Source: Escherichia coli (GTDB lineage: Bacteria > Pseudomonadota > Gammaproteobacteria > Enterobacterales > Enterobacteriaceae). Taken from it: a stretch of DNA of 64,000 nucleotides. The notes under the pieces are model-generated. The model saw only the letters and a program-made list of their open reading frames with translations. It was not told the DNA's origin and did no database searches. Shown here piece by piece: positions 13,132-64,000 of this stretch (position 1 is the stretch's first letter; each line of letters begins with the position of its first letter). Position numbers and translations under genes: made by a program. The stretch is from NCBI RefSeq assembly GCF_016026235.1, contig NZ_CP065613.1; one strand, written 5' to 3'.

Positions 13132-13396
13132 GATATGACTTTCCGTGTCAAACCGGAATCTCTAATTTTGACGATTTTCTTTTTAGGTTTAATTCCCTGA
13201 GGGCGACGTAGCAGTAAATCCGACGGTGAATCACGCTGATATTCGCGGGTTGGATACCGCATTACAGAGGTCCGTCATATGAGCCTGCCACTTTCTTACG
13301 TCGCGAATCAGCTTTGTTCCGCCGTCGCCAAGCGCTAACGTGGGTTACTCTTGTACCGGGCTACGTCGCCTTCAGGGAACTGGTTATTCTCATTTT
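13132..13396 (-). ncRNA. Candidate structured non-coding RNA (bridge/seek-type guide RNA) in the 3' non-coding region of the IS110-family element
   Basis: No credible ORF; long-range inverted repeat CCCTGAGGGCGACGTAGC (13195-13212) pairs with GCTACGTCGCCTTCAGGG (13360-13377) at 17 of 18 positions; strand and exact ends not determined. Confidence 0.3.
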
Positions 13397-14524
13397 TTAT
13401 TTGTGACATTGTGGTTGTTGTGCGACAGACATTGCTATTCGGCCCATATCCCAGATAAAACCCGCCAGCTCACGTGCAACAGCAACAATTGTAATATTGA
13501 CATTCTTTCCTTTGGCCTGAAGTTTTCGATACCTCTTACAAAGCCTGAGTTGAGCATCCCATGCTCTGTCAATGACGGGGCGGGGTAAATTTTCCTGCCT
13601 TTTTTGTATTGCCGGACTGATGCGTGCCGGATGACGGTAACTCCACGCTGCCTCGACCAATAGCTTTCTGGCATAGCTGTTTCCGGCTTTGGTAATGCTG
13701 CCCTGATGTCTGCTTCCACCCGATGAATATTCTGATGGCGTGATACCAAACCATGACATCAGTTGTCGTGGATGTTCAAAACGGGTCAGATCACCCAGTT
13801 CAGAAATTAATCCAACCGCAGTAATAAACTGAATCCCTCGCATGGCTTGCAGCGCCTCTACTACCGGATACAGCCTCCATTCGGTAACGGCCTCCTTCAG
13901 GGCGGATTCCAGCCGTTCACATTGTGCCTGCCGGTCTTCTATTGTACGACGGTGTTCGTCAAAAGCTAATTGTCGCCAGGGACTTTCGAATGAGTATTTG
14001 CTGAGCCAGCGTCGGTGTGCAGGGCCCCAATCTGCTCGCCCGACATAATGGACCCCATGAACCAGAAGAAACGATTTCAGACGTTGCCTTGCATGCCGTA
14101 AATCATCGCGGGCAGATGCCCATGCCCGGGCCAAATCCCGGAATGCCTCATCTTCAATGCCGGGTACGTAGACAGCAGAAAGATCTCCTGCACGCAGTGA
14201 ACGCACAAGTCTGATGGCATCACGGCGATCGGTTTTAACCCGCTCCCCCGGTTTTTTCGGGATAAGTGAGGGGGCGCAGACCATGCAGTCAAAACCGGAT
14301 TTCACCAGCCGACGATAAAGTCCATAACCACAGGGCCCCGCTTCATAAACGATACTGACCTGCGATGACTTTGACCTGAGACGTTTACAAAGATTCTGAA
14401 TATCAGTAGGTGATGTGCCAATTTTACCCATCAGTTCAACAGGTTCTGAATTGATAGCATAAGCGACAGTAATCGATTCTTTGTGAACATCTAACCCGAC
14501 GTACAATGTGTTATTGTTGTTCAT
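13397..14524 (-). CDS. IS110-family (DEDD) transposase/recombinase, 375 aa
   Basis: ORF track 13397..14572; start assigned at MNNNNTLYVGLDVHK; RuvC-like acidic motifs (LYVGLDVHK, VYEAGPCGY, KTDRRDA) and a C-terminal GITPSEYSSGGS...SITKAGNSYARK region. Confidence 0.85.
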   Translation of the reverse strand: MNNNNTLYVGLDVHKESITVAYAINSEPVELMGKIGTSPTDIQNLCKRLRSKSSQVSIVYEAGPCGYGLYRRLVKSGFDCMVCAPSLIPKKPGERVKTDRRDAIRLVRSLRAGDLSAVYVPGIEDEAFRDLARAWASARDDLRHARQRLKSFLLVHGVHYVGRADWGPAHRRWLSKYSFESPWRQLAFDEHRRTIEDRQAQCERLESALKEAVTEWRLYPVVEALQAMRGIQFITAVGLISELGDLTRFEHPRQLMSWFGITPSEYSSGGSRHQGSITKAGNSYARKLLVEAAWSYRHPARISPAIQKRQENLPRPVIDRAWDAQLRLCKRYRKLQAKGKNVNITIVAVARELAGFIWDMGRIAMSVAQQPQCHK

Positions 14525-15559
14525 GCTGGCCTCCGTGGTGGAAATACCGGGGTGTAGCAACAGCTCACCCATGCGGCTCTGACAACGATGTTAACCCGCG
14601 TTAAATATCCCACGTTGGCCAGCATCTGTCTCACGGAAAGTCATACTGCCTTACGGGCCGATGCTACCGGAGCTGCTCGGCGGTTCGGCGGATCTGGCTC
14701 CCAGCAACCTGACCATCTGGAAAGGTTCTGTTTCGCTGAAGGAAGATCCGGCGGGCAACTACATTCACTACGGGGTGCGTGAATTTGGCATGACCGCTAT
14801 CGCCAACGGCATTGCGCACCACGGCGGCTTTGTGCCGTATACCGCAACGTTCCTGATGTTTGTTGAATACGCCCGTAACGCCGCGCGGATGGCGGCACTG
14901 ATGAAAGCGCGGCAGATTATGGTTTATACCCACGACTCAATTGGTCTGGGCGAAGATGGTCCGACGCACCAGGCTGTTGAGCAACTGGCCAGCCTGCGCT
15001 TAACGCCAAATTTCAGCACCTGGCGACCGTGCGATCAGGTGGAAGCGGCGGTGGGCTGGAAGCTGGCGGTTGAGCGCCACAACGGACCGACGGCACTGAT
15101 TCTCTCCAGGCAGAATCTGGCCCAGGTGGAACGTACGCCGGATCAGGTTAAAGAGATTGCTCGTGGCGGTTATGTGCTGAAAGACAGCGGCGGTAAGCCA
15201 GATATTATTTTGATTGCCACCGGTTCAGAGATGGAAATCACCCTGCAAGCGGCAGAGAAATTAGCGGGAGAAGGTCGCAATGTTCGCGTAGTTTCCCTGC
15301 CCTCGACCGATATTTTCGACGCCCAGGATGAGGAATATCGGGAGTCGGTGTTGCCTTCTAACGTTGCGGCTCGCGTGGCGGTGGAAGCAGGTATTGCCGA
15401 TTACTGGTACAAGTATGTTGGTCTGAAAGGGGCAATTGTCGGGATGACGGGTTATGGGGAATCTGCTCCGGCGGATAAGCTGTTCCCGTTCTTTGGCTTT
15501 ACCGCCGAGAATATTGTGGCAAAAGCGCATAAGGTGCTGGGAGTGAAAGGTGCCTGATG

Positions 15560-15597: not shown

Positions 15598-16456
<859 letters not shown>

Positions 16457-16481
<25 letters not shown>

Positions 16482-16978
16482 TTCTCCAGCTCCTGGCGCT
16501 TTTTTTCCAGGAGATGCTCCTGCATGGCTTTCAGATATGCATTTTCTGCGCGAAGATAACGCAGCTCATTCTTCATCTCTTCCGGCGTCATGTTTCCCTC
16601 GTTTTCATGGGTATCATTAGAACGGGTCATGCTTTTCTCCTTCCTGCGCCTGATAAAGGCCTCATTACCAGATTTGCGGTAGCCTTTTATCCAGTTTTTA
16701 ACCATGTTGTGGCTGGGAATGTTAAACCGGGCAGCTACCCGGGGTAGAGACTCAGAATGCCCGAGAGCATAAAGAACCACGCAAAGTTTATCTTCAGGAG
16801 AATAGCTACGCTTGTGTCTGCAATCCAGTGCCTGAGGACCGTGAAGAAGAAAAAGATTAATCCAGTGTGAGAGGCTGGTGTGAGAAAGTTGAAAGAGTTT
16901 TGCCGTAGAAATGATGCCTGCATGACCGGCCAGGTAATGATTTACAGCGGCAAGTTTTACTTCAAATGAATGTTTCAT
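16457..16978 (-). CDS. insJ: IS150 OrfA (InsJ), helix-turn-helix DNA-binding protein
   Basis: 173 aa starting MKHSFEVKLAAVNHYLAGHAG; leucine-zipper-like C-terminus. Confidence 0.88.
16499..16505 (-). other. Probable programmed -1 ribosomal frameshift heptamer A-AAA-AAG in the IS150 orfA/orfB overlap
   Basis: Reverse-strand CTG GAA AAA AAG CGC near the end of orfA, with orfB open in the -1 frame. Confidence 0.55.
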
Positions 16979-17029
16979 AAACTGCACCTTCAGATGTCAG
17001 ATTATGTCCAACATTTGGGGTGCAGTTCA

Positions 17030-20880: not shown

Positions 20881-21085
20881 AACGACCTTCTTTTTTGGTT
20901 GTAAAAACCTTATTCTTTATATGAGTGTTGTTATTACCCGACTTACAGGGGAATCGGCAATGTTCATGTGCCCAGAATAAGTAACTATTTCGCTATAAAC
21001 TGTGGCAGATCAAATAATCCCATCATTGACTAAATTGCGTTTCAGCGAACTGGAACATTAATGATTTTTTGTGGAGAAGACGCGT

Positions 21086-22786
21086 GTGATTGTTAAACGA
21101 CCCGTCTCGGCCAGTCTGGCCCGGGCCTTTTTTTACATTGTGCTGCTGTCGATTCTTTCCACGGGTATCGCTCTGCTAACTCTGGCGAGCAGTTTGCGCG
21201 ACGCTGAGGCTATCAATATTGCCGGATCGCTGCGTATGCAGAGTTACCGCCTGGGCTACGACTTGCAAAGTGGCAGTCCACAACTCAATGCACATCGCCA
21301 GCTGTTTCAGCAGGCACTGCATTCACCGGTATTAACCAATCTCAACGTCTGGTATGTGCCAGAAGCAGTAAAAACTCGCTATGCGCATCTGAATGCCAAC
21401 TGGCTGGAGATGAATAATCGTCTCAGCAAGGGCGACTTGCCGTGGTATCAGGCCAATATTAATAACTATGTTAATCAGATAGACCTGTTCGTGCTGGCTT
21501 TACAGCACTACGCTGAACGCAAAATGCTGCTGGTGGTGGCGATTTCCCTAGCTGGCGGCATCGGTATTTTCACGCTGGTCTTTTTTACTTTGCGCCGCAT
21601 ACGCCATCAGGTGGTTGCCCCGCTGAATCAGCTGGTTACCGCCAGTCAGCGTATTGAACACGGGCAGTTCGACTCGCCGCCGCTGGATACCAGCCTGCCG
21701 AATGAGCTTGGTCTGCTTGCAAAAACCTTTAACCAGATGTCGAGCGAGCTGCATAAATTGTACCGTTCGCTGGAGGCGTCAGTAGAAGAAAAGACTCGCG
21801 ATCTCCACGAGGCCAAGCGTCGTCTGGAGGTGTTGTATCAATGTTCGCAGGCGCTGAACACCAGCCAGATTGATGTGCATTGTTTCCGCCATATTTTGCA
21901 GATTGTTCGCGACAATGAAGCGGCTGAATATCTGGAGTTAAATGTCGGTGAAAACTGGCGGATTAGCGAAGGGCAACCAAACCCGGAATTGCCGATGCAG
22001 ATTTTACCGGTGACAATGCAAGAGACGGTTTACGGCGAACTGCACTGGCAAAATAGTCACGTTTCATCATCAGAACCGCTGCTTAACAGCGTTTCGTCGA
22101 TGCTGGGACGCGGTTTGTACTTTAATCAGGCGCAGAAGCATTTTCAGCAGTTATTGTTGATGGAAGAACGTGCAACCATCGCCCGCGAATTGCACGACTC
22201 GCTGGCTCAGGTACTTTCTTACTTACGTATCCAGTTGACGTTACTTAAGCGTTCGATACCGGAAGATAACGCCACCGCACAAAGTATCATGGCCGATTTT
22301 TCCCAGGCGTTGAATGATGCTTATCGGCAGTTACGCGAGCTGTTGACTACTTTCCGCCTGACGCTGCAGCAGGCGGATCTCCCCTCCGCGTTGAGGGAAA
22401 TGCTGGATACGTTACAAAATCAAACCAGCGCCAAACTGACCCTCGACTGCCGTCTGCCAACCCTGGCGCTGGATGCGCAAATGCAGGTGCATTTGTTGCA
22501 AATTATTCGCGAAGCGGTGCTGAATGCGATGAAGCACGCCAACGCCAGCGAAATCGCCGTCAGTTGCGTCACCGCGCCGGACGGCAATCACACGGTTTAT
22601 ATCCGTGATAACGGGATTGGTATCGGTGAACCGAAAGAACCCGAAGGTCATTATGGTCTGAATATCATGCGCGAACGCGCGGAACGGCTAGGTGGGACGC
22701 TGACTTTTTCACAACCTTCCGGCGGCGGCACGTTAGTGAGTATTAGCTTTCGCTCTGCGGAGGGTGAGGAAAGTCAGTTGATGTAA
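21086..22786 (+). CDS. narQ: Nitrate/nitrite sensor histidine kinase NarQ
   Basis: ORF track 21071..22786; probable GTG start at 21086 (MIVKRPV) gives 566 aa; two transmembrane segments, HAMP and histidine kinase (ELHDSLAQ) regions. Confidence 0.88.
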   Translation: MIVKRPVSASLARAFFYIVLLSILSTGIALLTLASSLRDAEAINIAGSLRMQSYRLGYDLQSGSPQLNAHRQLFQQALHSPVLTNLNVWYVPEAVKTRYAHLNANWLEMNNRLSKGDLPWYQANINNYVNQIDLFVLALQHYAERKMLLVVAISLAGGIGIFTLVFFTLRRIRHQVVAPLNQLVTASQRIEHGQFDSPPLDTSLPNELGLLAKTFNQMSSELHKLYRSLEASVEEKTRDLHEAKRRLEVLYQCSQALNTSQIDVHCFRHILQIVRDNEAAEYLELNVGENWRISEGQPNPELPMQILPVTMQETVYGELHWQNSHVSSSEPLLNSVSSMLGRGLYFNQAQKHFQQLLLMEERATIARELHDSLAQVLSYLRIQLTLLKRSIPEDNATAQSIMADFSQALNDAYRQLRELLTTFRLTLQQADLPSALREMLDTLQNQTSAKLTLDCRLPTLALDAQMQVHLLQIIREAVLNAMKHANASEIAVSCVTAPDGNHTVYIRDNGIGIGEPKEPEGHYGLNIMRERAERLGGTLTFSQPSGGGTLVSISFRSAEGEESQLM

Positions 22787-32092: not shown

Positions 32093-32259
32093 AGATACCT
32101 CAACAATATATTCATTATAGAAATGATCGTAGGTGGTTCAGAGGAAGATTACCACAGGAAAGCGGGATGAAATGGCGGAGGAATGAGCGTTCAATGCACA
32201 TCTTACGAGAATGGTTGTCTTGCCGTGCCAGCAGCACGGCAAGATGATGAACAGAAAAA

Positions 32260-36555: not shown

Positions 36556-37173
36556 ATGAACCGCTTTGTGGTGGCCGAACCACTGTGGTGTACAGGATGT
36601 AATACCTGTCTCGCTGTCTGTTCGGACGTGCATAAAACGCAAGGTTTACAGCAACACCCGCGCCTGGCCCTGGCGAAGACGTCAACACTCACTGCCCCTG
36701 TCGTGTGTCATCACTGTGAGGAAGCCCCTTGCCTGCAGGTCTGCCCGGTCAATGCCATCTCCCAGAGGGATGATGCGATCCAACTCAACGAAAGCCTCTG
36801 TATTGGCTGCAAGCTTTGCGCCGTGGTCTGCCCATTTGGCGCAATCAGCGCTTCAGGAAGCCGTCCGGTGAATGCCCCTGCGCAATATGTTTTTCAGGCT
36901 GAAGGCTCACTCAAAGACGGCGAAGAAAACGCGCCAACACAACATGCTTTGCTGCGCTGGGAACCGGGTGTCCAGACCGTCGCGGTGAAATGCGACCTGT
37001 GTGATTTCTTGCCAGAAGGTCCGGCCTGCGTTCGCGCTTGCCCGAATCAGGCGTTACGGCTGATCACCGACGATAGCCTGCAACGTCAGATGAAAGAAAA
37101 ACAGCGCCTTGCCGCAAGCTGGTTTGCCAATGGCGGGGAGGATCCCCTTTCCCTCACTCAGGAGCAACACTAA
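36556..37173 (+). CDS. hyfA: Hydrogenase-4 component A, 4Fe-4S ferredoxin-type
   Basis: 205-aa ORF with multiple CxxCxxCxxxCP motifs. Confidence 0.9.
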   Translation: MNRFVVAEPLWCTGCNTCLAVCSDVHKTQGLQQHPRLALAKTSTLTAPVVCHHCEEAPCLQVCPVNAISQRDDAIQLNESLCIGCKLCAVVCPFGAISASGSRPVNAPAQYVFQAEGSLKDGEENAPTQHALLRWEPGVQTVAVKCDLCDFLPEGPACVRACPNQALRLITDDSLQRQMKEKQRLAASWFANGGEDPLSLTQEQH

Positions 37174-39195
37174 TGGATGCCCTGCAATTATTAACCTGGT
37201 CGCTGATCCTCTATCTGTTTGCCAATCTGGCTTCGCTGTTTTTACTCGGTCTGGACAGACTGGCTATTAAGCTTTCCGGCATCACATCGCTGGTGGGCGG
37301 CGTGATTGGCATCATCAGCGGAATTACGCAATTACATGCTGGTGTAACTTTAGTCGCCCATTTTGCCACCCCTTTTGACTTTGCCGATTTAACCCTGCGA
37401 ATGGATAGCCTCTCGGCATTTATGGTGCTGGTTATCTCCTTGCTGGTGGTGGTTTGTTCGCTCTATTCATTGACTTATATGCGCGAATACGAGGGCAAAG
37501 GCGCGGCGGCGATGGGCTTCTTTATGAATCTTTTCATCGCATCGATGGTTGCCCTGCTGGTGATGGACAACGCTTTTTGGTTCATCGTGCTGTTTGAAAT
37601 GATGTCGCTGTCTTCCTGGTTTCTGGTCATTGCCAGGCAGGATAAAACGTCGATCAACGCTGGCATGCTCTACTTTTTTATCGCCCACGCCGGATCGGTG
37701 CTGATTATGATCGCCTTCTTGCTGATGGGGCGCGAAAGCGGCAGCCTCGATTTTGCCAGTTTCGCACGCTTTCACTTTCTCCGGGGCTGGCGTCGGCGGT
37801 GTTTCTGCTGGCCTTTTTCGGTTTTGGCGCGAAAGCCGGGATGATGCCGTTGCACAGCTGGTTGCCGCGCGCTCACCCTGCCGCACCATCGCACGCTTCG
37901 GCGTTGATGTCTGGCGTAATGGTCAAAATCGGTATTTTCGGCATCCTGAAAGTAGCGATGGATCTGCTGGCGCAAACGGGTTTGCCTCTGTGGTGGGGCA
38001 TTCTGGTGATGGCGATCGGCGCAATCTCCGCGCTCCTGGGCGTGCTATATGCGCTGGCGGAACAGGATATCAAACGGCTGCTGGCCTGGAGTACCGTCGA
38101 AAACGTCGGCATTATTTTGCTGGCAGTCGGTGTGGCGATGGACGGTCTGTCACTGCACGACCCGCTGCTCACCGTGGTTGGACTGCTCGGCGCACTGTTT
38201 CATCTGCTCAACCATGCGCTGTTCAAAGGGCTGCTATTTCTCGGCGCGGGCGCGATTATTTCGCGTTTGCATACCCACGACATGGAAAAAATGGGGGCAC
38301 TGGCGAAACGGATGCCGTGGACAGCCGCAGCATGCCTGATTGGTTGCCTCGCGATATCAGCCATTCCTCCGCTGAATGGTTTTATCAGCGAATGGTACAC
38401 CTGGCAGTCGCTGTTCTCACTAAGTCGTGTGGAAGCCGTAGCGCTACAACTTGCGGGTCCTATTGCTATGGTAATGCTGGCAGTCACTGGTGGGCTGGCA
38501 GTAATGTGCTTCGTAAAAATGTACGGTATTACTTTCTGTGGTGTGGTGCGCCGCGCAGTACACACGCTGAAGAGGCACAGGAAGTGCCAAATACGATGAT
38601 CGTCGCCATGCTACTGCTCGCGGCACTCTGCGTATTAATTGCGCTTAGTGCCAGTTGGCTGGCACCGAAGATAATGCATATTGCCCATGCGTTTACCAAT
38701 ACCCCTCCCGTCACTGTCGCCAGCGGAATAGCACTTGTACCCGGCACGTTTCATACACGGGTCACTCCTTCATTACTGTTGCTGTTACTACTGGCGATGC
38801 CTTTGCTGCCTGGCCTTTACTGGCTGTGGTGTCGTTCGCGCCGCGCAGCGTTTCGTCGCACAGGAGATGCCTGGGCATGCGGCTACGGCTGGGAAAATGC
38901 GATGGCCCCGTCAGGCAATGGCGTGATGCAGCCGCTGCGTGTGGTCTTTTCTGCGCTATTTCGTCTACGACAACAGCTCGACCCTACGCTGAGGCTAAAT
39001 AAAGGTCTTGCGCACGTCACCGCCAGGGCTCAGAGCACAGAACCCTTCTGGGATGAGCGGGTGATCCGCCCCATCGTGAGCGCCACCCAACGGCTGGCCA
39101 AAGAAATACAGCATCTGCAAAGCGGCGACTTTCGTCTCTATTGCCTGTATGTGGTCGCCGCACTGGTTGTGCTGCTAATCGCTATTGCCGTCTAA
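37173..39195 (+). pseudogene. hyfB: Hydrogenase-4 membrane subunit HyfB, disrupted by two frameshifts
   Basis: Three consecutive ORF segments in frames 0, 2 and 1 (37173..37844, about 37760..38547, about 38548..39195); total 2023 nt, which equals a 673-codon gene minus 1 plus 5. Confidence 0.8.
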
Positions 39196-39205
39196 GGAAA
39201 TCACC

Positions 39206-40153
39206 ATGAGACAAACTCTTTGCGACGGATATCTGGTCATTTTTGCGTTAGCACAGGCCGTGATTCTGCTGATGCTAACCCCACTTTTTACGGGTATTTC
39301 CCGGCAGATACGCGCGCGTATGCACTCCCGCCGCGGGCCGGGGATCTGGCAGGATTATCGCGATATCCACAAACTGTTTAAACGCCAGGAAGATGCGCCG
39401 ACATCTTCAGGTCTGATGTTCCGCCTGATGCCGTGGGTATTAATCAGCAGCATGCTGGTGCTGGCGATGGCCCTACCACTATTTATTACCGTTTCCCCTT
39501 TTGCGGGCGGCGGCGATCTGATCACCCTTATCTATCTTCTTGCCCTGTTTCGTTTTTTCTTTGCTCTTTCAGGGCTGGATACCGGAAGCCCGTTTGCGGG
39601 AGTCGGTGCCAGTCGCGAGTTGACGCTCGGCATTCTGGTCGAACCCATGCTCATTCTCTCACTGCTGGTATTGGCGCTGATAGCAGGTTCCACGCATATC
39701 GAGATGATCAGCAATACGCTGGCAACGGGCTGGAACTCGCCGCTAACCACCGTACTGGCGTTACTGGCCTGTGGTTTTGCCTGCTTCATTGAGATGGGAA
39801 AAATTCCCTTTGATGTTGCTGAAGCAGAACAGGAATTACAGGAAGGCCCGCTGACAGAATATTCCGGTGCCGGGCTGGCGCTGGCGAAATGGGGGCTGGG
39901 GCTGAAACAGGTCGTGATGGCAGCACTGTTTGTGGCCCTGTTTCTGCCCTTTGGGCGCGCGCAAGAACTTTCTCTCGCCTGCCTGCTGACTTCACTTGTC
40001 GTTACGCTGCTCAAGGTTTTGCTGATTTTTGTACTGGCCTCAATCGCAGAAAACACGCTGGCACGCGGGCGTTTTTTACTCATTCACCATGTGACCTGGC
40101 TTGGCTTCAGCCTTGCTGCGCTTGCATGGGTCTTCTGGTTAACCGGTCTGTAA
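39206..40153 (+). CDS. hyfC: Hydrogenase-4 membrane subunit HyfC (NuoH-like)
   Basis: ORF track 39185..40153; start at MRQTLCDGYLVIF gives 315 aa. Confidence 0.88.
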   Translation: MRQTLCDGYLVIFALAQAVILLMLTPLFTGISRQIRARMHSRRGPGIWQDYRDIHKLFKRQEDAPTSSGLMFRLMPWVLISSMLVLAMALPLFITVSPFAGGGDLITLIYLLALFRFFFALSGLDTGSPFAGVGASRELTLGILVEPMLILSLLVLALIAGSTHIEMISNTLATGWNSPLTTVLALLACGFACFIEMGKIPFDVAEAEQELQEGPLTEYSGAGLALAKWGLGLKQVVMAALFVALFLPFGRAQELSLACLLTSLVVTLLKVLLIFVLASIAENTLARGRFLLIHHVTWLGFSLAALAWVFWLTGL

Positions 40154-40169
40154 GGAGCACTGACGGAAT

Positions 40170-41608
40170 ATGGAAAATCTTGCTCTGACGACGTTATTGC
40201 TGCCTTTTATCGGCGCACTGGTCGTTTCGTTTTCGCCACAACGTCGGGCCGCCGAATGGGGGGTTTTGTTCGCCGCGCTGACCACGCTGTGCATGTTGTC
40301 GCTGATCTCCGCGTTTTATCAGGCCGATAAAGTTGCCGTCACGTTGACGTTGGTCAACGTGGGGGATGTGGCATTGTTTGGCCTGGTCATTGATCGCGTG
40401 AGTACGCTGATTCTGTTTGTGGTGGTGTTTCTCGGTTTGCTGGTCACGATCTACTCCACGGGTTATCTGACGGATAAAAATCGCGAACACCCGCATAACG
40501 GCACGAATCGTTATTACGCATTTTTGCTGGTGTTTATCGGCGCGATGGCGGGACTGGTACTCTCCTCGACGCTGCTCGGTCAGTTGTTGTTTTTTGAAAT
40601 TAGGGCGGCTGCTCCTGGGCGTTGATCAGTTATTACCAGAGCGATAAAGCGCAGCGTTCAGCACTAAAAGCGTTGCTTATCACCCATATCGGTTCGTTGG
40701 GGTTGTATCTTGCCGCCGCCACGCTGTTTTTGCAGACCGGAACGTTTGCGCTTAGCGCAATGAGCGAGTTACACGGCGACGCACGTTATCTGGTTTATGG
40801 CGGGATCCTGTTTGCCGCGTGGGGGAAATCGGCCCAGCTACCGATGCAAGCGTGGCTACCGGATGCAATGGAAGCGCCAACACCGATCAGCGCCTATCTC
40901 CACGCCGCATCGATGGTGAAAGTGGGCGTTTACATTTTTGCCCGCGCAATTATCGACGGCGGCAATATCCCGCATGTGATTGGCGGCGTTGGCATGGTCA
41001 TGGCACTGGTCACCATTCTTTATGGCTTTCTGATGTATTTGCCACAGCAGGATATGAAGCGGTTGCTGGCCTGGTCGACCATCACTCAACTTGGCTGGAT
41101 GTTCTTCGGCTTGTCGCTCTCCATCTTCGGCTCGCGGCTGGCGCTGGAGGGTAGCATCGCCTACATCGTCAACCACGCGTTCGCTAAAAGCCTGTTTTTC
41201 CTTGTAGCAGGTGCGCTGAGTTACAGCTGCGGCACGCGCTTGTTGCCGCGTCTGCGTGGCGTATTGCACACCCTGCCGTTGCCAGGCGTGGGTTTCTGCG
41301 TGGCAGCGCTGGCGATTACCGGCGTGCCGCCGTTCAACGGCTTCTTCAGTAAATTCCCGCTGTTTGCTGCCGGTTTTGCGTTGTCAGTGGAGTACTGGAT
41401 CCTGCTGCCCGCCATGATTCTGCTGATGATTGAATCGGTCGCCAGTTTCGCCTGGTTTATTCGCTGGTTTGGTCGCGTTGTGCCTGGCAAACCGAGCGAG
41501 GCCGTCGCCGATGCCGCACCGCTGCCAGGGTCAATGCGCCTGGTGTTGATTGTACTGATTGTGATGTCGCTGATTTCCAGCGTAATCGCCGCGACCTGGT
41601 TGCAGTAA
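40170..41608 (+). pseudogene. hyfD: Hydrogenase-4 membrane subunit HyfD, disrupted by one frameshift
   Basis: Two ORF segments (40170..40625 and 40622..41608) in different frames; total 1439 nt, which equals a 480-codon gene minus 1. Confidence 0.8.
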
Positions 41609-47257: not shown

Positions 47258-49269
47258 ATGGCTATGTCAGACGAGGCGATGTTTGCCCCGCCGCAAGGAA
47301 TAACAATTGAAGCGGTAAACGGAATGCTCGCGGAGCGGTTAGCGCAGAAACACGGCAAGGCGTCTTTATTACGCGCCTTCATCCCGCTGCCGCCGCCGTT
47401 CAGCCCGGTACAACTTATTGAACTGCATGTTCTCAAAAGCAACTTCTATTACCGCTACCATGATGATGGCAGCGATGTGACGGCAACAACAGAGTATCAG
47501 GGCGAGATGGTCGATTATTCGCGTCACGCCGTCCTTCTCGGCAGTAGTGGAATGGCGGAGCTACGCTTTATTCGTACCCACGGCAGCCGTTTTACTCCCC
47601 AGGATTGCACACTGTTTAACTGGCTGGCACGCATTATCACTCCGGTTCTGCAATCATGGCTCAATGATGAAGAACAACAGGTGGCGCTGCGTTTGCTGGA
47701 GAAAGATCGCGATCATCATCGGGTACTGGTTGATATTACTAATGCAGTGCTGTCACATCTTGATCTCGACGATCTGATCGCTGACGTCGCTCGTGAGATC
47801 CATCATTTTTTCGGTCTGGCTTCAGTCAGTATGGTACTGGGCGATCATCGAAAGAACGAGAAGTTTAGCCTGTGGTGCAGCGATCTTTCTGCCTCACATT
47901 GTGCGTGTCTGCCACGCAATATGCCTGGCGACAGTGTATTGCTGACACAAACGCTACAAACCCGACAACCGACCTTGACGCACCGTGCAGACGTCTGTTT
48001 CTCTGGCAACGCGACCCGTTATTACTCTTACTTGCATCTAACGGCTGCGAATCTGCGCTCCTTATACCGCTTACCTTTGGCAACCATACACCGGGTGCAT
48101 TGTTGCTGGCGCATACCTCTTCCACTCTCTTTAGTGAGGAAAACTGCCAGCTACTACAACACATAGCCGATCGCATCGCTATTGCCGTTGGCAATGCCGA
48201 TGCCTGGCGTAGAATGACCGATTTGCAGGAAAGTTTGCAGCAAGAAAACCACCAGCTTAGCGAGCAGCTCCTTTCGAATCTGGGCGTCGGTGACATTATC
48301 TATCAAAGCCAGGCAATGGAAGACCTACTCCAGCAGGTAGATATTGTGGCGAAGAGCGACAGTACGGTGTTGATTTGCGGTGAAACCGGAACCGGCAAAG
48401 AGGTGATCGCCAGAGCGATCCATCAACTTAGCCCGCGACGCGACAAGCCGCTGGTCAAAATCAACTGCGCTGCCATCCCCGCCAGTCTTCTGGAAAGTGA
48501 GTTATTCGGTCATGACAAAGGAGCGTTTACTGGTGCGATTAATACCCATCGTGGTCGTTTTGAAATTGCCGATGGCGGCACGTTGTTTCTCGATGAAATT
48601 GGCGATCTGCCGTTAGAACTTCAGCCTAAACTGCTGCGCGTATTGCAGGAACGGGAGATTGAGCGTCTCGGCGGGAGTAGAACGATCCCGGTAAATGTCA
48701 GAGTCATTGCCGCCACCAACCGTGATTTGTGGCAAATGGTTGAAGATCGCCAGTTTCGCAGCGATCTCTTTTATCGCCTGAATGTCTTCCCACTGGAATT
48801 GCCGCCGCTGCGCGACCGTCCGGAAGATATCCCTCTTTTAGCAAAGCATTTCACGCAAAAAATGGCGCGCCATATGAATCGTTCAATTGACGCCATCCCG
48901 ACCGAGGCGCTACGCCAGTTGATGTCGTGGGACTGGCCGGGCAACGTGCGCGAGCTGGAAAACGTGATTGAGCGAGCGGTACTGCTGACTCGCGGTAACA
49001 GTCTGAATTTACATCTTAATGTCCGACAAAGCCGTTTACTGCCGACGCTAAATGAAGATTCAGCGCTTCGCAGTTCAATGGCGCAGTTGCTGCACCCGAC
49101 GACGCCAGAGAATGACGAAGAAGAACGTCAGCGCATTGTTCAGGTATTGCGAGAAACCAATGGCATTGTTGCCGGGCCCCGTGGCGCGGCGACACGATTA
49201 GGGATGAAGCGCACCACGCTGCTGTCACGAATGCAGCGTCTGGGGATCTCGGTTCGCGAGGTGTTGTAA
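47258..49269 (+). pseudogene. hyfR: Sigma-54-dependent activator HyfR (GAF + AAA+ + HTH), disrupted by one frameshift in the GAF region
   Basis: Two overlapping ORF segments in different frames (47255..48166 and 47872..49269); total 2012 nt, which equals a 671-codon gene minus 1; the downstream segment has the sigma-54 activator motifs GETGTGKE and GAFTGA. Confidence 0.8.
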
Positions 49270-62050: not shown

Positions 62051-64000
62051 TCAGGCACTTTCGCGAATGGGTTCGATTTCATTCAACGTATCAATTAACG
62101 GCTGCGGCTTACCAATAAGATAACCCTGCATATAATCGATCCCCAAAGAGAGCACCGCCTCGCGGATCTCTTCGTTTTCAACGTACTCTGCCACTACCCG
62201 CATTTTCTTCATTCGCGCCAGGTGGCAAATCGATGCCACTATCTGATAATCCAGACTATTTGACACAATATTGCGGATAAAACTGCCGTCAATTTTAAGC
62301 AGATCGGCATTCACATTTTTAAGCCGTGCATAGCTGGCGTAGCCGGTGCCGAAATCATCAATCGCAATCTGGCAGCCTAATTCCTGAAGATGCTGCAAGG
62401 TGATTTGCGCCTGCTTAACATTGGTCAGAGCATTACTTTCGGTGACTTCAAAAATAAGTTGCCACGCTTCAATCTGATATTTAGCCAGCAACTGACTGAC
62501 TTCAACAGGAAAACGAGCCTGACATACCGAGGTTGGAGACAGATTAATAGCAAAACGGTGAGCGGGCATCTTCGCTCTGTTTTCAGCCATAAATTGCAGC
62601 GTATGCTCAATGACCCACATGTCGATACTCGACGATAAACCAAATTCGTGCGCGACCGGCAAGAAGCTATCGGGGCCGATCAGTTCATCATTCTCACCTT
62701 TCATGCGCAGAAGAATTTCATGGTAAACATCACCACGCATACCGGTAATCGGCTGGGCCATCAGGAAAAAATGGTTGTGTTCCAGCGCCTGCTGTAGTCG
62801 ATTCATCATCGCGACTTTATCTTTCAATTCGCGTTGCAAATACATTGCCCCGCGACGCTGCATATTTTCCGGGGCGTTGGTCACGATGGAAAGTTCGGCG
62901 ACCGTATTTAGCTCTCCCAGCAGCAGGTAGATATGATTCACTGGCGAGCGCACATAGCAGTAACTGACGCCAATCTGCGGTTGCATCGGCATGCCATCCC
63001 AAAAGAAACGAAATTGCTTGAGATGGCTATCCAGTGCGGTAATGCGCTCCTGGTGCGATTCTGTATTCAGTCGCAGCGCGAGATCGTTACCCGAAAGCTG
63101 ATAAACATCTTCACCCGGTTCCAGCAAGGGTGACAGCCAGTGAGAAAGTTTTTGCTTGTATTGAATCCGCAGCATGATGCCATAGTTCTTAACCAGCATT
63201 TCCATGCCAGGGATGCGTAAATAACAAAGCGCAGACCAGGGGGCATCACGCAACGCGCGATTCAGGGCGCGAACATTTGGCAGATGAACCACCGGGTCCA
63301 CATACGCAAGCCGCTGAATGCGTCTGACTACCGCTCTCTGACGGGTTGCCAGTACAGCCATATAATTGACAATAAAAGAGAATACCAGATAACTGGAGGA
63401 GGTTATGGTCAGCTGCGTGGTATAGCCAGGATAAATGGGAATGTAATTTTGATAGCTGTGGATGCTGATCATCAACACGACCGCCCAGAGCAGCGAAATC
63501 AGCTTATAACCATAGCGCATCGCTCCCCACATCATCAGGGGCAGCAATAATGACAAGGTATAATTGGTGCTAAAAATTGTGCTTTTTTCATTTAACGGCA
63601 TGCATAACAGCAACAATAAAGCACCTAATGCCAGTAGCCAGAGCGCGAACTCTTTTTTGGTGACTTTGGCATCAACCTGCTGTTTTAATTGCGAATAATA
63701 GCTACGTAAATAAAATGGATTTCGCACTACCCGAATGATGAAGTAGCACAGCGGGACACCGATCAGATTACCCACCAGTAAGGCCTGATAATTGATTAAA
63801 GTCCCGAGGTTAAAAGGCATGACACCGACCAGATTTTCTCTGCTCGCCAATAATCCTACAAATGCAGCAAACTGGAAAAGTATCAGAAACAGCGTTGCAG
63901 GAAACACAATCTGCCAGAATATACGCTGGGAAATTAAACGGGTATCACCATGTGAAACGTTGTTACGCCGGGGAGTAAAGACCCTGTAACCGCCCCAACA
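62051..64000 (-). CDS. pdeF: Cyclic-di-GMP phosphodiesterase PdeF (YfgF), 3' 649 codons; the 5' end lies beyond the window
   Basis: ORF track 62051..63907 (618 aa from an internal GTG); the frame stays open to position 64000; C-terminal EAL domain and N-terminal transmembrane MASE-like region. Confidence 0.85.
   Translation of the reverse strand, partial: CWGGYRVFTPRRNNVSHGDTRLISQRIFWQIVFPATLFLILFQFAAFVGLLASRENLVGVMPFNLGTLINYQALLVGNLIGVPLCYFIIRVVRNPFYLRSYYSQLKQQVDAKVTKKEFALWLLALGALLLLLCMPLNEKSTIFSTNYTLSLLLPLMMWGAMRYGYKLISLLWAVVLMISIHSYQNYIPIYPGYTTQLTITSSSYLVFSFIVNYMAVLATRQRAVVRRIQRLAYVDPVVHLPNVRALNRALRDAPWSALCYLRIPGMEMLVKNYGIMLRIQYKQKLSHWLSPLLEPGEDVYQLSGNDLALRLNTESHQERITALDSHLKQFRFFWDGMPMQPQIGVSYCYVRSPVNHIYLLLGELNTVAELSIVTNAPENMQRRGAMYLQRELKDKVAMMNRLQQALEHNHFFLMAQPITGMRGDVYHEILLRMKGENDELIGPDSFLPVAHEFGLSSSIDMWVIEHTLQFMAENRAKMPAHRFAINLSPTSVCQARFPVEVSQLLAKYQIEAWQLIFEVTESNALTNVKQAQITLQHLQELGCQIAIDDFGTGYASYARLKNVNADLLKIDGSFIRNIVSNSLDYQIVASICHLARMKKMRVVAEYVENEEIREAVLSLGIDYMQGYLIGKPQPLIDTLNEIEPIRESA

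Follow-up and report, generated by a model that had tools for sequence, protein, structure and literature searches.

Simple-sequence contingency loci include phase-variable pentanucleotide repeats, such as CTCTT in the opa genes of Neisseria. Bacterial pseudogenes produced by slippage duplication carry two head-to-tail copies of a unit that was single in the ancestral allele. The gene hyfB of Escherichia coli K-12 (b2482) encodes a membrane subunit of the NuoL/Proton_antipo_M type and belongs to the operon hyfABCDEFGHIJR-focB. The genes hyfA-J are listed in a table of differences in gene content associated with phylogroup B2 (PMC2617782), and H2 from Hyd-4 was not detectable after the K-12 hyf promoter had been replaced and HyfG engineered (PMC7654741).

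Here we describe a hyfB allele that departs from the K-12 gene by two frame-breaking indels, one of which is a 5-bp tandem duplication. It is located in a stretch of 64,000 nucleotides of an E. coli genome (contig NZ_CP065613.1), which is referred to as the window and to which all positions apply. We consider it highly likely (probability of roughly 0.9) that the duplication is vertically inherited, that it arose by slippage on a hyfB haplotype that was already dead, that it was fixed neutrally, and that it later reached a second genomic background.

Structure of the split hyfB gene

In the window, hyfB occupies positions 37173-39195 on the + strand, between hyfA and hyfC in the hyfABCDEFGHIJR-focB operon. 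Both its sequence and its place in the hyf operon identify it as the orthologue of HyfB (hydrogenase-4 subunit B; Proton_antipo_M / NuoL-like). Its fragments match the Pfam families PF00662 and PF00361, and its nucleotide identity to K-12 hyfB is 99.1%. The gene is a pseudogene of 2,023 bp, against 2,019 bp for K-12, owing to the loss of one base and the gain of five, and alignment with K-12, O8:H8 16F5M1D1, and NN5 revealed exactly two indels. The first of these, frameshift 1, is the loss of one C at 37762/37763 on the + strand (K-12 AGTTTCCGC, window AGTTTCGC), which moves the reading frame from 3 to 2. The second is the duplication, which adds five bases at 38537-38541. With these two frame-breaking indels, an intact full-length translatable hyfB coding sequence is absent from the window, and PGAP labels hyfB in the genome of FDAARGOS_943, a close relative, as a ‘frameshifted’ pseudogene. 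Repair of both indels in silico restored a 672-aa ORF, with 18 nucleotide differences from K-12 in 2,019 nt and 8 amino-acid differences in 672 aa.

The duplication lies within positions 38530-38559 (tactttctgt ggtgtggtgc gccgcgcagt). The preliminary description of this DNA had reported the repeat GTGGT GTGGT at 38538-38547, and it is present there, with one copy at 38538-38542 and the second at 38543-38547. The repeated tract is slightly wider and comprises TGTGGTGTGGTG at 38537-38548 on the + strand, that is, 2.4 copies of a 5-bp unit, in place of the ancestral TGTGGTG. A 5+5 tandem can be read in three registers (starts 38537-38539), and the register decides whether the unit is named TGTGG, GTGGT or TGGTG; the position corresponds to Cys456/Gly457 of hyfB. 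Tandem 5+5 repeats were found at 51 separate loci in the window, compared with ~62 positions expected at 4^-5 per position. Judged from the letters of the window, the GTGGT repeat is by itself not beyond chance, and only the comparison with other genomes makes it significant.

The five extra bases are not a multiple of three. As had been proposed before, the frame switches from 2 to 1 at the duplication: the ORF 37799..38599 is in frame 2, after which frame 1 continues to the stop at 39195. In this ORF, authentic HyfB extends to ...MYGITFCG and is followed by an out-of-frame tail, CG-VVRRAVHTLKRHRKCQIR, which ends at a premature stop codon at 38597-38599. Frame 1 downstream of the duplication reads GAPRSTHAEEAQEVPNTMIV... 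up to the natural stop at 39195, and K-12 HyfB from residue 453 reads ITFCGAPRSTHAEEAQEVPNTMIV (ITFCGAPRS). The +2 frame shift stops translation 18 codons on, at 38599, with loss of the final 215 residues. The preliminary description had also stated that removal of one copy gives a continuous ORF. This is correct with respect to the frame-2 segment, which then yields the K-12 peptide ...ITFCGAPRSTHAEEAQEVPNTMIV, but the full 672 aa also need the C at 37762/37763.

The two indels leave three ORF fragments on the + strand. The first (37173-37844; 223 aa) contains the HyfB N-terminus in frame 3 and then an out-of-frame tail, the second (37841-38599; 252 aa) runs from MMPLH to ITFCG and into the tail VVRRAVHTLKRHRKCQIR created by the duplication, and the third (38596-39195; 199 aa) begins with MIVAMLLL and reaches the native stop. 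The tetranucleotide ATGA at 37841-37844 and 38596-38599 joins the TGA of each out-of-frame ORF to an overlapping in-frame native Met codon. Because of these stop-start overlaps, gene callers give three abutting hyfB ORFs. The overlaps are probably the trivial outcome of a shifted frame reaching ATG-A.

Rarity and authenticity of the duplication

A 70-bp query spanning the duplication was searched in complete E. coli genomes, 4,297 of which contained a match. Only one, that of FDAARGOS_943 (NZ_CP065615.1), carried the duplication and matched the query at 100%. The other 4,296 showed a 5-base gap against the query and are single-copy. In the reciprocal search with a single-copy 65-mer from K-12, we obtained 2,319 exact matches, 1,977 matches at 95-99% identity, and a single record at 90-95%, which is the identity expected from a 5-bp insertion; the sampled rows of the 95-99% class all cover the same 65 bases of the K-12 query. 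Other length variants at the duplication site were not found among the 4,297 complete genomes. At the level of individual alleles, K-12, O8:H8 16F5M1D1, and NN5 have the single-copy CTGTGGTGC, and the window and FDAARGOS_943 have CTGTGGTGTGGTGC; the unit is thus present once in related alleles and twice in tandem in the window. Hence, the single-copy form is the intact allele, as judged from 4,296/4,297 genomes and the intact hyfB of K-12. The opposite possibility, raised in the preliminary description, that the normal, intact gene has the duplicated form, was examined in related genomes and does not hold.

A 5-mer repeated in this manner could also be the target-site duplication left by a mobile element that was inserted and later removed. 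The length fits a 5-bp target-site duplication, which is made by IS2, Tn3, Mu, and Tn7, for example. Insertion sequences are active in the lineage (an IS3-family and an IS110-family element are found in the window), and IS421 resides inside hyfB in other strains. Against such a footprint, neither an element nor a split match was detected at the site in the 4,297 complete genomes, each of which aligns contiguously over at least 80% of the 70-bp query. Loss of a bacterial DDE element usually either re-creates the original sequence or removes additional bases, and a clean duplication is rarely left. In addition, the TG...TG microhomology of the ancestral sequence is sufficient for slippage, and we regard a footprint as very unlikely.

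The preliminary description had considered the extra bases a real mutation and not a base-calling error, and this is borne out by the presence of the duplicated form in independent assemblies from different technologies. FDAARGOS_943 is closely related to the window strain but not identical in sequence: 24 SNPs, a 4-bp indel, and an IS element separate the two, which also differ in a repeat region near the window start, and the duplication is found in both. The 252-aa ORF that is specific to the duplication is recorded exactly as CAD7363588.1 and STM06474.1, and it was encoded by 26 contigs in 43 blocks of the searched collection. Among these are the short-read Logan assemblies of SRR13627082, SRR11406016, and SRR13615176, which are separate SRA runs. 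One Logan assembly (L013) is 100% identical to the window across 11.5 kb, and another (L011) differs from it at 3 sites. Of the four candidate starts for this ORF, only ATG 37841 (252 aa) is the recorded one; an exact protein look-up of the GTG-start 266-aa, the 251-aa, and the 230-aa versions returned no record.

A sequencing or assembly origin of the extra 5 bases, which would then be absent from the organism, might be suspected from FDAARGOS_943, where several genes within these 64 kb (hyfB, hyfD, hyfR, narQ) are called ‘frameshifted’, as could be the case in a noisy assembly. However, the duplication is common to the window, FDAARGOS_943, the independently assembled SRA runs, and the ENA/NCBI records, and an insertion of 5 bp outside a homopolymer is not the kind of error that any platform typically makes. 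Moreover, the 4-bp insertion in narQ is missing from the window, which marks it as a lesion specific to one genome and not as a systematic error of the region. Based on these sequence comparisons, an assembly artefact is effectively refuted.

An older upstream deletion and the second genomic background

The loss of one C at 37762/37763 is located ~775 bp upstream of the duplication and truncates HyfB at about residue 197. It is shared with O8:H8 16F5M1D1 and NN5 and was present in all closest relatives examined. As an exact 50-bp allele, it occurs in 1,257 of 4,293 complete E. coli genomes (29%). In 7/7 deletion carriers that were examined, hyfB was called ‘frameshifted’ by PGAP. Among the matches listed, most carriers of the 1-base deletion are without another hyfB indel (match length 2,196), and the other deletion-bearing hyfB haplotypes differ from the window at 5-6 sites. 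The duplication was seen only within the set of deletion carriers. As this nesting shows, hyfB was already truncated when the duplication arose, and the duplication is a second lesion in a gene that had been broken by the older and commoner upstream deletion. Compensatory restoration of the frame was also considered and rejected, as -1 and +5 give a net +4 and the frame is not restored. Speculatively, the wild-type peptide SFRTLS would be recovered at the upstream lesion if tRNA-Phe made a -1 slip in the P site on AGU UUC GCA.

The duplicated haplotype was also found in a second genomic background. The assembly of SRR11406016 (L012) is ~0.5% divergent from the window on both flanks of hyfB, while it shows zero differences across 37024-39282, with hyfB 100% identical. 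Its hyfD lesions differ from that of the window, with one G lost at 40258 and a ~206-bp deletion, and the C at 40602 is kept. These sequences are most simply read as one origin of the duplication and a later homologous recombination, by which either the haplotype or its flanks came into the second background; recombination could have replaced the flanks of the identical hyfB block in L012 instead of importing hyfB. Near the hyf region, vapBC between ypfJ and purC (window ~32185-32251) is a presence/absence polymorphism: the genes are present in O8:H8, 2013C-3264, A31, RM8352, and L012, and absent from the window, FDAARGOS_943, K-12, and D72.

The identical hyfB haplotype in two backgrounds with flanks ~0.5% different could be taken to mean that the duplication is a primary or adaptive loss of function, which was selected and spread between backgrounds as a favoured allele. 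The listing of hyfB among genes with an excess of non-synonymous change in S. sonnei (PMC6811581) would be in line with this. Such a role is highly improbable, however, as HyfB is already truncated by the upstream 1-base deletion, so that the duplication adds no further loss. That deletion is carried by 29% of the genomes, including every close relative examined, in contrast to just 1/4,297 complete genomes for the duplication, and the second background is accounted for by neutral hitch-hiking of the duplication with a recombined segment.

Decay and dispensability of the hyf operon

Beyond hyfB, two other hyf genes are broken in the window. The hyfD pseudogene (40170-41608, + strand) measures 1,439 bp compared with 1,440 bp and has lost one base near 40602; this exact allele was found in 352 of 4,048 genomes. 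A different hyfD lesion, a deletion of ~206-216 bp, was observed in several relatives. The hyfR pseudogene (47258-49269, + strand) has lost one A at 47993, and its allele was detected in a single one of 4,288 complete genomes (FDAARGOS_943), making it private to the lineage among complete genomes. Three of the four small indels that separate window positions 17030-64000 from the outgroups are in hyf genes, the hyfD one having been compared with K-12 alone. Such a concentration of indels is what relaxed selection on a dead operon is expected to leave.

The carriers of the upstream deletion show varied stages of hyf integrity. In O8:H8 16F5M1D1, hyfB, C, F, H, and I are flagged as pseudogenes and hyfD is cut to 1,224 bp; in 2013C-3264, hyfC-hyfR are deleted and focB has an internal stop. 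Both hyfD and hyfR are broken in A31, and hyfD is broken in O121 RM8352. In NN5, hyfB carries a further 1-base deletion, and D72 has no further hyf lesion, with the rest of the operon intact. Since most of the deletion carriers among the matches listed are without another hyfB indel and the operon of D72 is otherwise intact, the decay is recent or incomplete, and the split hyfB may have retained a residual function before the duplication.

We also weighed whether the duplication marks a functional site, that is, either a phase-variable repeat or a recoding site or split gene whose three ORFs form a working subunit. The ATGA overlaps with an in-frame native Met provide a geometry that permits termination-reinitiation. 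Such overlaps are nevertheless expected wherever a +1-shifted frame ends at ATG-A, and the net +4 leaves the frame unrestored. Only 1-copy and 2-copy alleles exist, the latter in 1/4,297 genomes, and two copies of a 5-mer are not hypermutable. Both hyfD and the activator gene hyfR are broken in the same genome, and a functional site is scarcely credible. Two specific candidates were rejected. A phase-variable locus is at odds with the lack of length polymorphism among the 4,297 complete genomes apart from the one 2-copy allele. A programmed ribosomal frameshift or recoding site is at odds with the absence of the arrangement from all other hyfB alleles and of a slippery heptamer: no X XXY YYZ motif was found at 38530-38550. 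Translation of the three ATGA-joined ORFs by termination-reinitiation and their assembly into a functional split antiporter-like HyfB would be similarly hard to credit, because hyfD and hyfR are also broken. If it were true, the 1-base deletion and the duplication would be tolerated gene fissions and not inactivations.

No hyfB match at all was obtained in 1,128 of 5,426 complete genomes. Together with the phylogroup B2 table and the null H2 result for K-12 described above, these genomes show that hyfB is dispensable. Of the hyfB-bearing complete E. coli genomes, ~29% have one common hyfB frameshift, accompanied by varied further hyf decay. This pattern agrees with the experience that Hyd-4 activity in E. 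coli has long been hard to detect (PMC7654741), and with a frameshifted hyfB in this proportion of genomes, the choice of strain matters for Hyd-4 studies.

Other variable features of the window

Several features outside the hyf genes distinguish the window from its relatives. In FDAARGOS_943, narQ (about 21082-22782) contains an extra CTTA at window position 22217, which causes a frameshift (1,705 bp vs 1,701 bp). The CTTA is not present in the window strain, where narQ is intact, and the insertion is private to one clone member. A 1.5-kb IS110-family element at 13132-14649 interrupts tktB at about codon 366. Its transposase of 391 aa (13397-14572, - strand) scored 274 bits against NF033542 ‘IS110 family RNA-guided transposase’. 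This element is bordered by a CT dinucleotide at either end, and FDAARGOS_943, K-12, and O8:H8 lack it. The tktB-ypfG intergenic region harbours an IS3-family element of ~1.43 kb (15598-17029), for whose two ORFs the FDAARGOS_943 annotation gives a programmed frameshift. Neither K-12 nor O8:H8 has this IS3-family element, which is associated with a target duplication of 3-4 bp. In the eutH-eutG intergenic region, two copies of an 83-bp segment (540-622 and 640-722) lie ~100 bp apart. The window has one unit more than FDAARGOS_943, O8:H8 and K-12 align in several registers, and the segment looks like a variable REP-like array. At the other end of the window, pdeF (62051-64000) runs off the end; in FDAARGOS_943 it is annotated by PGAP as incomplete with a missing N-terminus (2,073 bp vs 2,244 bp).

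The SNPs between the window and FDAARGOS_943 (e.g. 2096, 21550, 35890, 42421, and 57872) are almost all G:C to A:T transitions. When polarised with O8:H8 and K-12, such transitions accounted for 10/11 SNPs on the window branch and 9/12 on the FDAARGOS_943 branch, and on the + strand there were 15 G>A changes against 4 C>T. A normal spectrum was seen for the 419 older shared-derived SNPs, with a transition/transversion ratio of 3.2 and changes in both directions. L011 lacks the SNP sets of both branches. The bias on both branches suggests recent exposure to a mutagen or a defect in repair or deamination.

Origin of the duplication and comparison with known systems

A slipped-strand origin, as put forward in the preliminary description, is supported by the ancestral TGTGGTG, whose TG...TG microhomology suffices for the event, while we infer the slippage step itself. 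The mechanism would rest on this 2-nt microhomology: the nascent strand would have copied TGTGGTG and slipped back 5 nt on TG...TG, and TGGTG would then have been copied a second time, yielding exactly the observed +5. A hairpin or inverted repeat spanning the duplication site was not found, and only weak 6-9-nt inverted repeats are nearby. Structure-driven template switching at a hairpin or quasi-palindrome was rejected, as no inverted repeat spans the duplication. The duplication arose on a hyfB haplotype already inactivated by the common 1-base deletion and, as the nesting of the alleles suggests, would have carried no added fitness cost and been fixed by drift. It may be one of several late lesions, with those in hyfD and hyfR, in a dispensable and decaying operon, and the duplicated haplotype would later have entered the second genomic background, most likely via homologous recombination.

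The duplication is most likely an ordinary slipped-strand duplication, and it is a late lesion in an existing pseudogene that PGAP already annotates as frameshifted; the literature searched on hyfB frameshifts yielded nothing specific to the duplicated allele. This allele can be diagnosed by the 252-aa ORF or the 12-bp tract, either of which might act as a lineage marker for this E. coli clone. The duplication also represents a well-documented case of a secondary, presumably neutral lesion in an already inactivated operon.

Compared with K-12 hyfB, the window gene occupies the same place in the operon and differs in being split into three ORFs by the 1-base deletion and the 5-base duplication. 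It resembles simple-sequence contingency loci in having a 5-nt unit within a coding region, where the copy number sets the frame. Unlike these loci, it has only two copies and no sign of switching, and it is not a member of the class. The closest match is to bacterial slippage-duplication pseudogenes, which likewise have one unit in the ancestral allele and two head to tail in the derived allele, with microhomology, a frameshift, and relaxed selection. Nothing material sets hyfB apart from them; its microhomology is minimal (2 nt), and the event is reconstructed by comparison.
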